A stretch of 64,000 nucleotides of DNA, taken from NCBI RefSeq assembly GCF_046105845.1, contig NZ_CP151004.1; one strand, given 5' to 3'. A program made the translations under genes and the position numbers. Source of the DNA: Escherichia coli (GTDB lineage Bacteria > Pseudomonadota > Gammaproteobacteria > Enterobacterales > Enterobacteriaceae). Of this stretch, positions 1 through 54,111 are shown piece by piece (position 1 is the stretch's first letter; every line of letters begins with the position of its first letter). The notes beneath the pieces are model-generated. The model saw nothing but the letters and a program-made list of their open reading frames with translations, made no database searches and had not been told where the DNA came from.

Positions 1-621
1 AAACCACTCTTCCCAGCCAGTAATACGGGTACTTTGATGCAGAAGTGGTAACTCTGTAAGCAGTTCTGCCACTGACAGTTTTTGATCGGACATTGTAAGC
101 AAACTGCCGCTGCATACCGGCAAAATCTCCTCTTCAAAGAGATATTCTACTTCCGCCCAGGGCGCGCAAAAATTTTCGCGCATAATGACAGCATCGTACT
201 CCCGATTAAGAAAATCGCCGTTATTAGCTAAAGAGTGAATATTAACAATAATATCGGAATGTAACTTTGTGAATTCATGTAAATTTGGGATTAACCAGTG
301 GGTACTAAACGTAGGATTCACGGCAAGTTCAATAACCTTAACCGTAGGCTGCCAGGTCATAATGGTATTGGTATCGCGTTCCAGCTTATTTAATGTTTCT
401 TTTACTATCCCCAGGTAATACTTCCCTGCATCATTAAGAAAAATACGTTTTTTAGAGTGTGAAAATAACGGAGTATGTAAAAATTCCTCCAGCGCACTCA
501 CTTGTCTGAATACTGCACTTTGGGTCAACGCTAACTCCTCTGCCGCTCTGGTATAACTTTCATGACGTGCGACGACCTCAAAAGTCACCAGCAGCTCCGT
601 TTTAGGTATTTTTCCTCGCAT
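1..621 (-). CDS. LysR-family transcriptional regulator, 3'-truncated by the window edge (about 207 N-terminal residues present)
   Basis: Not in the ORF track because it is incomplete. Reverse-strand ATG at 619-621 opens a frame translating MRGKIPKTELLVTFEVVARHESYTRAAEELALTQSAVFRQVSALEEFL..., with a typical LysR N-terminal winged-HTH followed by a co-inducer-domain-like region. Family assignment by eye. Confidence 0.7.
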   Translation of the reverse strand, partial: MRGKIPKTELLVTFEVVARHESYTRAAEELALTQSAVFRQVSALEEFLHTPLFSHSKKRIFLNDAGKYYLGIVKETLNKLERDTNTIMTWQPTVKVIELAVNPTFSTHWLIPNLHEFTKLHSDIIVNIHSLANNGDFLNREYDAVIMRENFCAPWAEVEYLFEEEILPVCSGSLLTMSDQKLSVAELLTELPLLHQSTRITGWEEWF

Positions 622-1185
622 AATGCCGTCCCTTAAAAATAGTTTAAACCATCAAAAATACATTACTTATTACGAAGTAATGGTAACCAAAGCAGCAATA
701 AATAATTTATAAGAATCATGATTGACATTTATAACCCAGTAAGCCTGGCGTGACAAATATCTTAATCAGATAATAATAATCCGAAAAGCACAGCGCCTTT
801 CGAATTATCCGGAATCACATTAAGTGAAAATTATTAAATTGATATCATTTATCATATCTGTGGATATTATGATAAACAATCAACAAAGATTTTATTTTTG
901 ATTTATAGCATATCCCTCTAAGAATTTTTGCGATGCTGCAATATCCGGGGTAAAGACCCGATCCTGGCTGACAAATGGCACGACTTGACGATAAGCGGTG
1001 AACATCGCTTTTGTTGATTTACTTAACGCTACGGTCAAACGCTGGGAAGCCAGTGCATCAGGTAACGATTCGAAATTCGCCGTCGTTCTTATTCGTGGCT
1101 TGCGGTCGGTTGCGGCAATCCACAGTGGCTGTGGTCATGCAGTCAAGCCAGCGGTCAGATTTCGACCGTGGTTAACATTTAAGGC

Positions 1186-1211
1186 ATAAAAAAGGCCATC
1201 ATATGATGGCC
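1186..1211 (-). terminator. Rho-independent terminator downstream of sucD
   Basis: Perfect hairpin GGCCATCATATGATGGCC (1194-1211) followed on the minus strand by a U-run (A-run 1188-1193 on plus). Confidence 0.75.
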
Positions 1212-1286
1212 AACCATGTCGAAACCGACAGCCCTTCGCCATTCCTGTAGAGGGAAGCGGCGAGGGCTATTTCTTATTACAGATAT
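1186..1286 (-). ncRNA. sdhX: Candidate SdhX (RybD) sRNA, the sucD 3'UTR ending at the sucD terminator
   Basis: Positional: in E. coli the sucD 3'UTR is processed into the sRNA SdhX. The interval between the sucD stop and the terminator is about 100 nt. Sequence identity was not checked. Confidence 0.45.
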
Positions 1287-2156
1287 TTATTTCAGAACAG
1301 TTTTCAGTGCTTCACCGATATCCGCCAGGCTGCGAACGGTTTTCACGCCTGCGGCTTCCAGAGCAGCGAATTTCTCATCCGCAGTCCCTTTCCCACCGGC
1401 AATGATCGCACCCGCGTGGCCCATACGTTTGCCTTTCGGCGCAGTCACACCAGCGATGTAACCCACAACAGGCTTGGTAACGTGCTCTTTGATGTACGCA
1501 GCCGCTTCTTCTTCAGCGCTACCGCCGATCTCACCGATCATCACGATCGCTTCGGTCTGCGGATCTTTTTCGAACATTTCGAGGATGTCGATAAAGTTAG
1601 AGCCAGGGATCGGGTCGCCGCCGATACCGACACAGGTCGACTGACCGAAACCGTAATCCGTGGTCTGTTTAACCGCTTCATAGGTCAGTGTACCGGAACG
1701 GGAAACGATACCCACTTTACCCGGTTTGTGAATGTGACCCGGCTGGATACCGATTTTGCATTCACCCGGAGTGATTACGCCCGGACAGTTCGGGCCGATC
1801 ATACGAACGCCTGCTTCATCCAGTTTCACTTTCACGGTCAGCATATCCAGCGTCGGGATGCCTTCAGTGATGGTGATAATCAGTTTGATGCCTGCATCGA
1901 TGGCTTCCAGAATGGAGTCTTTGCAGAACGGTGCTGGTACGTAGATAACAGAAGCGGTAGCGCCAGTAGCAGCAACAGCTTCACGAACGGTGTTGAACAC
2001 CGGCAGGCCGAGGTGGGTGGTGCCGCCTTTACCTGGGGTTACGCCGCCAACCATTTTAGTGCCGTATGCAATAGCCTGTTCTGAGTGGAAAGTCCCCTGG
2101 CTACCGGTAAAGCCCTGGCAGATAACCTTGGTGTTTTTATCAATTAAAATGGACAT
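1287..2156 (-). CDS. sucD: Succinyl-CoA synthetase alpha subunit
   Basis: 289-aa [48 protein letters not shown]...; CoA-binding and phospho-His region recognisable. Its start overlaps the sucC stop. Confidence 0.97.
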
Positions 2157-53406: not shown

Positions 53407-53483
53407 TGGCTACGTAGCTCAGTTGGTTAGAGCACATCACTCATAATGATGGGGTCACAGGTTCGAATCCCGTCGTAGCCACC
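53407..53483 (+). tRNA. metT: tRNA-Met (CAU, elongator)
   Basis: GGCTACGTAGCTCAGTTGGTTAGAGCACATCACTCATAATGATGGGGTCACAGGTTCGAATCCCGTCGTAGCCACCA; anticodon loop CTCATAA. Confidence 0.95.
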
Positions 53484-53492
53484 ATCTTTTTT

Positions 53493-53578
53493 GCGGGAGT
53501 GGCGAAATTGGTAGACGCACCAGATTTAGGTTCTGGCGCCGCAAGGTGTGCGAGTTCAAGTCTCGCCTCCCGCACCAT
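53493..53578 (+). tRNA. leuW: tRNA-Leu (UAG)
   Basis: GCGGGAGTGGCGAAATTGGTAGACGCACCAGATTTAGGTTCTGG...CTCGCCTCCCGCACCA; long variable arm; anticodon TAG. Confidence 0.93.
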
Positions 53579-53600
53579 TCACCAGAAAGCGTTGTACGGA

Positions 53601-53675
53601 TGGGGTATCGCCAAGCGGTAAGGCACCGGTTTTTGATACCGGCATTCCCTGGTTCGAATCCAGGTACCCCAGCCA
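53601..53675 (+). tRNA. glnU: tRNA-Gln (UUG)
   Basis: TGGGGTATCGCCAAGCGGTAAGGCACCGGTTTTTGATACCGGCATTCCCTGGTTCGAATCCAGGTACCCCAGCCA. Confidence 0.95.
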
Positions 53676-53709
53676 TCTTCTTCGAGTAAGCGGTTCACCG
53701 CCCGGTTAT

Positions 53710-53784
53710 TGGGGTATCGCCAAGCGGTAAGGCACCGGTTTTTGATACCGGCATTCCCTGGTTCGAATCCAGGTACCCCAGCCA
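53710..53784 (+). tRNA. glnW: tRNA-Gln (UUG), second identical copy
   Basis: Identical in sequence to glnU. Confidence 0.95.
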
Positions 53785-53799
53785 TCGAAGAAACAATCT

Positions 53800-53876
53800 G
53801 GCTACGTAGCTCAGTTGGTTAGAGCACATCACTCATAATGATGGGGTCACAGGTTCGAATCCCGTCGTAGCCACCA
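53800..53876 (+). tRNA. metU: tRNA-Met (CAU, elongator), second identical copy
   Basis: Identical in sequence to metT. Confidence 0.95.
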
Positions 53877-53924
53877 AATTCTGAATGTGTCGAATAAGTT
53901 CGGCAAATTCACAAACCAATTTGT

Positions 53925-53999
53925 TGGGGTATCGCCAAGCGGTAAGGCACCGGATTCTGATTCCGGCATTCCGAGGTTCGAATCCTCGTACCCCAGCCA
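53925..53999 (+). tRNA. glnV: tRNA-Gln (CUG)
   Basis: TGGGGTATCGCCAAGCGGTAAGGCACCGGATTCTGATTCCGGCATTCCGAGGTTCGAATCCTCGTACCCCAGCCA. Confidence 0.95.
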
Positions 54000-54036
54000 A
54001 TTTATTCAAGACGCTTACCTTGTAAGTGCACCCAGT

Positions 54037-54111
54037 TGGGGTATCGCCAAGCGGTAAGGCACCGGATTCTGATTCCGGCATTCCGAGGTTCGAATCCTCG
54101 TACCCCAGCCA
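54037..54111 (+). tRNA. glnX: tRNA-Gln (CUG), second identical copy
   Basis: Identical in sequence to glnV. Confidence 0.95.

Follow-up and report, generated by a model that had tools for sequence, protein, structure and literature searches.

The window analyzed here is a stretch of 64,000 nucleotides from the Escherichia coli contig NZ_CP151004.1. Near its start lies sucD, the last gene of the sdhCDAB-sucABCD operon, whose mRNA is the parental transcript of the small regulatory RNA (sRNA) SdhX, a well-characterized sRNA that ties the synthesis of acetate kinase to expression of the TCA-cycle operon. The gene content behind sucD is unlike that of K-12, and this raises the question of whether the roughly 100 nt that follow the sucD stop codon still encode SdhX or merely end the operon. 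We addressed the question by comparing the region with the curated K-12 gene, by predicting its structure and its pairing with known targets, and by examining its conservation and surroundings in other Escherichia genomes.

Identity of the sucD 3′ UTR

According to the ORF list, the sucD reading frame closes with the stop codon TAA at 1289..1287 on the minus strand, and the RefSeq product name in near-identical genomes is sucD, succinate--CoA ligase subunit alpha. The ORFs of sucC, sucB, sucA and sdhB, sdhA, sdhD and sdhC lie upstream of it, all on the minus strand, such that the operon is complete; gltA is divergent from it. In the curated record of K-12 MG1655, the position directly after sucD is occupied by the ncRNA "sdhX, small regulatory RNA SdhX" (b4764; NC_000913.3 765050..765150). 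SdhX had been proposed for the corresponding region of the window in a first-pass annotation, which had suggested alignment with K-12 sdhX, above all over the seed, as a means of checking this identity. Read from 1286 to 1186, the window sequence is identical to b4764 at 99 of 101 positions without gaps, the coordinates match base for base, and the seed is intact at sRNA positions 64-74. Both substitutions relative to K-12 are G→A. One is at sRNA position 83 (window 1204), where the 4-nt loop of the terminator begins; the other is at sRNA position 100 (window 1187), 3′ of the U-tract. Both fall outside every known functional determinant of SdhX, and the seed, G62, the 14-nt katG-pairing stretch, the terminator stem and the U6 tail are identical to those of K-12 (Table 1).

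The same annotation had described the region as ending in a strong terminator, and this description proved accurate. The terminator scan reported a hairpin with a 7-bp stem, in which five pairs are G-C, and a loop of 4 nt, followed by TTTTTT at 1193..1188 on the minus strand. The predicted hairpin energy, -12.7 kcal/mol, is equal for the window allele and the K-12 allele. Within the 901 nt that were scanned (600..1500), two terminator-like sites were found, compared with 0.5 ± 0.8 in shuffled sequences. A role of the U-tail in Hfq binding is established for sRNAs that end in a terminator (PMC6393394). The 101 nt as a whole were predicted to fold at -41.3 kcal/mol versus -24.5 ± 3.1 kcal/mol for dinucleotide shuffles (z = -5.4), and none of 200 shuffles was equally stable.

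Table 1. Features at and downstream of the sdhX locus, in window coordinates
Feature	Position	Strand	Basis
sucD CDS, 289 aa	1287..2156	-	ORF list and RefSeq name in near-identical genomes
sdhX, long (~101 nt) form of the SdhX/RybD sRNA (sucD 3′ UTR)	1186..1286	-	Ungapped K-12 alignment, fold, conservation
5′ stem-loop of the long form, sRNA positions 19-57	1230..1268	-	Minimum-free-energy fold
katG-pairing stretch GCUUCCCUCUACAG, sRNA positions 29-42, complementary to the katG Shine-Dalgarno region	1245..1258	-	Identical to K-12
Short form, ~38 nt, G62 to the end of the U-tract: single-stranded seed and terminator	1188..1225	-	Length and processing site from PMC6393394, PMC9438474
Seed UUCGACAUGGU, sRNA positions 64-74; core CGACAU at 1221..1216	1213..1223	-	Exact match to PMC6393394
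Rho-independent terminator hairpin GGCCAUC-AUAU-GAUGGCC	1194..1211	-	Terminator scan; sole K-12 difference is loop base 83
U6 tail of the terminator, expected 3′ Hfq-binding element	1188..1193	-	Direct sequence reading
rtcB-family remnants	1189..1148 and 1145..1089		Match to rtcB-family gene; ~175 nt missing between
Histidine ammonia-lyase (HAL-family) internal piece	1085..1025		Match to ammonia-lyase gene
Ammonia-lyase gene 3′ end	1029..~892		Match; then intergenic region as in hut-island type
LysR-type gene	Starts at 621	-	HTH_1 and LysR_substrate domains

Rfam 15 was scanned with the whole window at the gathering threshold and with positions 900..1400 at E ≤ 10, and neither scan returned an SdhX family; therefore, the identification has no independent model-based confirmation. 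A hit to RyhB (RF00057) was rejected as a chance-level match: its score of 15.1 bits (E = 4.6) is below the gathering score of 55, and only the terminator hairpin aligns. An RNA feature over sdhX was likewise missing from the listed RefSeq (PGAP) genomes, where the entry at this site was "none" in most rows and only an overlapping rtcB-family CDS in two. Recognizing sdhX in the window thus fills a gap left by both the PGAP records and Rfam 15, and its significance goes little beyond correct annotation. Elsewhere in the window, the whole-window Rfam scan detected 7 tRNA genes, two of them with a CAU anticodon, in a tight cluster at 53408..54108 on the plus strand, which we take to resemble the K-12 cluster metT-leuW-glnUW-metU-glnVX.

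We found nothing in the sequence contrary to an sdhX identity. With a probability that we put at about 0.95, 1286→1186 on the minus strand is the sdhX gene, encoding the 3′ UTR-derived, Hfq-dependent sRNA SdhX (formerly RybD). Judged by its sequence, the locus is orthologous sdhX, and "candidate", the term used in the first-pass annotation, is too weak a label. SdhX is an already-described E. coli sRNA, and the finding is correct but ordinary and already known.

Processing, seed and target pairing

SdhX has been reported to lack a promoter of its own; RNase E cuts the roughly 10-kb operon mRNA, and the resulting forms of ~101 and 38 nt bind Hfq (PMC6393394, PMC9438474). Given the near-identity of the locus, the mechanism worked out in K-12 and Salmonella can probably be carried over to the window strain. 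SdhX would thus need no promoter of its own: it would be transcribed at the tail end of the operon mRNA, with its 3′ end at the intrinsic terminator. Cleavage by RNase E would free the ~101-nt and ~38-nt forms. In the shorter one, the seed UUCGACAUGGU would lie exposed immediately 5′ of the terminator hairpin. Once Hfq occupies the U-tail, this seed would pair across the ackA start codon and repress translation of acetate kinase, and this repression would couple acetate metabolism to expression of the TCA-cycle operon. Two more targets in E. coli are fdoG, which pairs with G62 and the seed, and katG, whose ribosome-binding site pairs with positions 29-42 of the long form. In the window strain, SdhX would accordingly be expected to be expressed, processed by RNase E, bound by Hfq and active as a regulator. 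No sigma-70-like promoter site was found on the minus strand between 600 and 1500, which is consistent with biogenesis by processing.

The SdhX seed was published as UUCGACAUGGU, just 5′ of the terminator and with the core CGACAU (Miyakoshi et al., PMC6393394). The 38-nt form, SdhX2, is described in the same literature, in which G62 is placed "at the SdhX2 processing site" (PMC6393394, PMC9438474). The sequence around this published processing site is identical to K-12 in the window, and the exact 5′ end of the short form in the window strain is presumably G62 as well. When the folding of the long form is predicted, a weak 4-bp hairpin of positions 58-61 with 66-69 takes up part of the seed, whereas the first 14 nt of the 38-nt piece, seed included, are predicted to be unpaired. 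Because the seed is partly paired in the one and unpaired in the other, processing would be expected to expose it.

Target pairing was predicted with K-12 sequences as proxies; the ackA, katG and fdoG genes of the window strain itself lie outside the window. With ackA, the seed gave a duplex of 10 bp that spans the AUG (-3..+8) and has an energy of -15.3 kcal/mol; among 1000 shuffled versions of the seed, none performed as well. These figures come from seed-restricted and 18-nt sliding-window predictions only. Duplexes of the whole 101-nt or 38-nt RNA with 140 nt of ackA were discarded as unrealistic, since they unfold both molecules. Among 5424 E. coli genomes, 5399 share this 140-nt start region of ackA with an identity of 99% or more. 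For fdoG, sRNA positions 62-71 were predicted to pair with -22..-13, with G62 opposite C-13, and for katG a 14-bp duplex of sRNA positions 29-42 with K-12 katG -20..-7 was predicted at about -28 kcal/mol. The fdoG and katG pairings agree with the results of compensatory mutations (PMC6393394).

Conservation of the sRNA and the DNA behind it

Of 5426 complete E. coli genomes, 5424 contain the 101 nt (coverage of at least 80%), and a repeat or mobile-element origin was rejected given a median of one copy per genome. Contigs were also scanned for the C-terminus of SucD by means of a degenerate pattern (GEALKTVLK*), which yielded only 5 loci, all Escherichia-like; this is enough for a genus-level alignment but too few for family-wide covariation. 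In the alignment of these 5 loci with K-12 and the window (7 sequences), only 6 of the 101 positions vary, namely 4, 5, 28, 47, 83 and 100, none of which lies in the seed or in the stem of the terminator. The first-pass annotation had named poor conservation of the seed as evidence that would speak against SdhX; this objection does not apply because the published seed is unchanged in the window. All 15 pairs of the 5′ stem are kept in the 7 sequences. In E. albertii, C28→U and G47→A convert the predicted C28-G47 pair to U28-A47. No other covariation was seen in the genus, and this single compensatory event does not reach significance by itself (68 of 500 shuffles). The 101 nt are nearly invariant in four other Escherichia lineages, and in E. 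albertii, E. whittamii and Escherichia sp. E1V33 the DNA just downstream of them is unrelated.

This pattern bears on a more modest reading of the region, namely that it is only an operon 3′ UTR with an intrinsic terminator, which ends transcription and stabilizes the sucD mRNA, and that no trans-acting sRNA accumulates or regulates. Processing and accumulation are indeed beyond the reach of sequence alone, and removing the entire 3′ UTR lowers SucD, hence the region also has a role in cis (PMC6393394). However, across Escherichia species the seed is invariant where the loop base and the flanks vary, which a pure terminator would not need. Moreover, not only the seed but also G62, the katG stretch, the terminator stem and the U-tail are those of the K-12 sRNA. 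We consider it very improbable that the region is nothing but a 3′ UTR, and the reading as sdhX is retained.

Two records of the locus were observed in passing. In E. coli FDAARGOS_944 (NZ_CP065613.1; 2573..2629 of the locus as extracted), an IS1 lies inside sdhX after sRNA position 73 and splits the seed from the terminator, in what looks like a natural disruption of sdhX. In DXKH01000067.1, a contig of a MAG labeled "Citrobacter sp.", sdhX is 100% identical to that of the window, and its flank, of the rtcB type, agrees with that of E. coli FDAARGOS_497 along the ~65 nt aligned; this may reflect an Escherichia origin of the contig or a mislabeled bin.

The first-pass annotation was also right that the downstream gene content appears to differ from K-12. 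Homology to K-12-type genomes ends ~3 nt past the 3′ end of sdhX, after which the window contains gene remnants and a LysR-type gene instead of mngR. Three downstream configurations were seen among E. coli genomes. The K-12 type, which accounts for most rows of the spread listing of genomes, has a convergent mngR with its stop codon 2 nt beyond the sdhX 3′ end. In the hut-island type, as in FDAARGOS_497, the convergent gene belongs to the rtcB family, and its stop codon and the 101-nt region overlap in the last 4 nt of the latter; behind it come hutU, a permease gene, hutD, hutI, hutG, an ammonia-lyase gene of the HAL family and a LysR-type gene. The third is the window type, found in 835 of 5426 complete E. 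coli genomes; the rtcB-family gene was matched at a coverage of at least 80% in 290 of 5426, both counts being approximate. Relative to FDAARGOS_497, ~9.7 kb (rtcB, hutU, the permease gene, hutD, hutI, hutG and HAL) are absent from the window, and positions 622..1189 look like the decayed deletion scar of an rtcB-hut (histidine utilization) island. Two plus-strand ORFs were weighed as genes. The ORF at 998..1189 (63 aa) is a read-through of the rtcB remnants without a Pfam match, and that at 1216..1461 (81 aa), a doubtful gene, overlaps sdhX and the sucD 3′ end in antisense and has no annotated counterpart at this place in related genomes.

The closeness of both convergent stop codons to the sdhX 3′ end would fit a hairpin that serves mainly as a bidirectional terminator, for mngR in K-12 and for the rtcB-family gene in hut-island strains. 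In the window, however, the convergent gene is a mere remnant, represented by the 63-aa ORF. The plus-strand sequence that follows the hairpin is AACCATGTCG, with no T-run, and the scan calls a terminator on the minus strand only. Termination in both directions would in any case be compatible with an sRNA role. That it is the main function of the hairpin we regard as exceedingly improbable, and the hairpin is best read as the terminator of sdhX.

Two further unrelated downstream sequences, in E. albertii and E. coli E69, begin at the same point. At least five unrelated Escherichia downstream contexts begin within ~3 nt of the sdhX 3′ end (window ~1183..1189), namely K-12 mngR, the intact rtcB-hut island, the decayed island of the window, E. 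albertii and E. coli E69. It is conceivable, though in our estimation rather unlikely, that the sdhX 3′ end is a recurrent breakpoint of genome plasticity in Escherichia; if this were true, the sRNA terminator could mark or attract a hot spot for the gain and loss of islands. With equal reason, the common starting point may be no more than a passive border, set where purifying selection on the sRNA stops. The sRNA is intact to its last base beside hypervariable DNA that has been replaced or has decayed, which fits selection on the sRNA and terminator as a module.

Comparison with known systems

The window locus resembles K-12 SdhX (RybD) in its place directly after sucD, its length of 101 nt, its identity at 99 of 101 positions and the identity of all determinants. 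It differs at two positions, 83 in the loop and 100 after the U-tract, where it carries A for G, and in its neighborhood, where K-12 has the convergent mngR and the window has rtcB and ammonia-lyase remnants and a LysR-type gene.

SdhX of Salmonella enterica occurs as SdhX1 of 87 nt and SdhX2 of 38 nt (PMC6393394). The likeness to the window extends to the operon position, the core seed CGACAU beside the terminator, ackA as the primary target and, as predicted for the window, RNase E- and Hfq-dependent biogenesis. Salmonella SdhX has U at the position of G62 and is without the katG-pairing stretch, and in place of fdoG and katG its targets are fumB and yfbV (PMC6393394). In contrast, the window carries the E. 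coli-type determinants, G62 and the katG stretch.

A similar arrangement is found in other Hfq sRNAs that derive from 3′ UTRs, namely CpxQ, NarS, SroC and MalH (PMC9438474), in which the seed also lies just 5′ of the parental intrinsic terminator and the sRNA, without a promoter of its own, is released by RNase E. These sRNAs differ from SdhX in sequence, parental operon and targets, all of which are unrelated, and they are analogues, not homologues, of the sRNA that the window very probably encodes.
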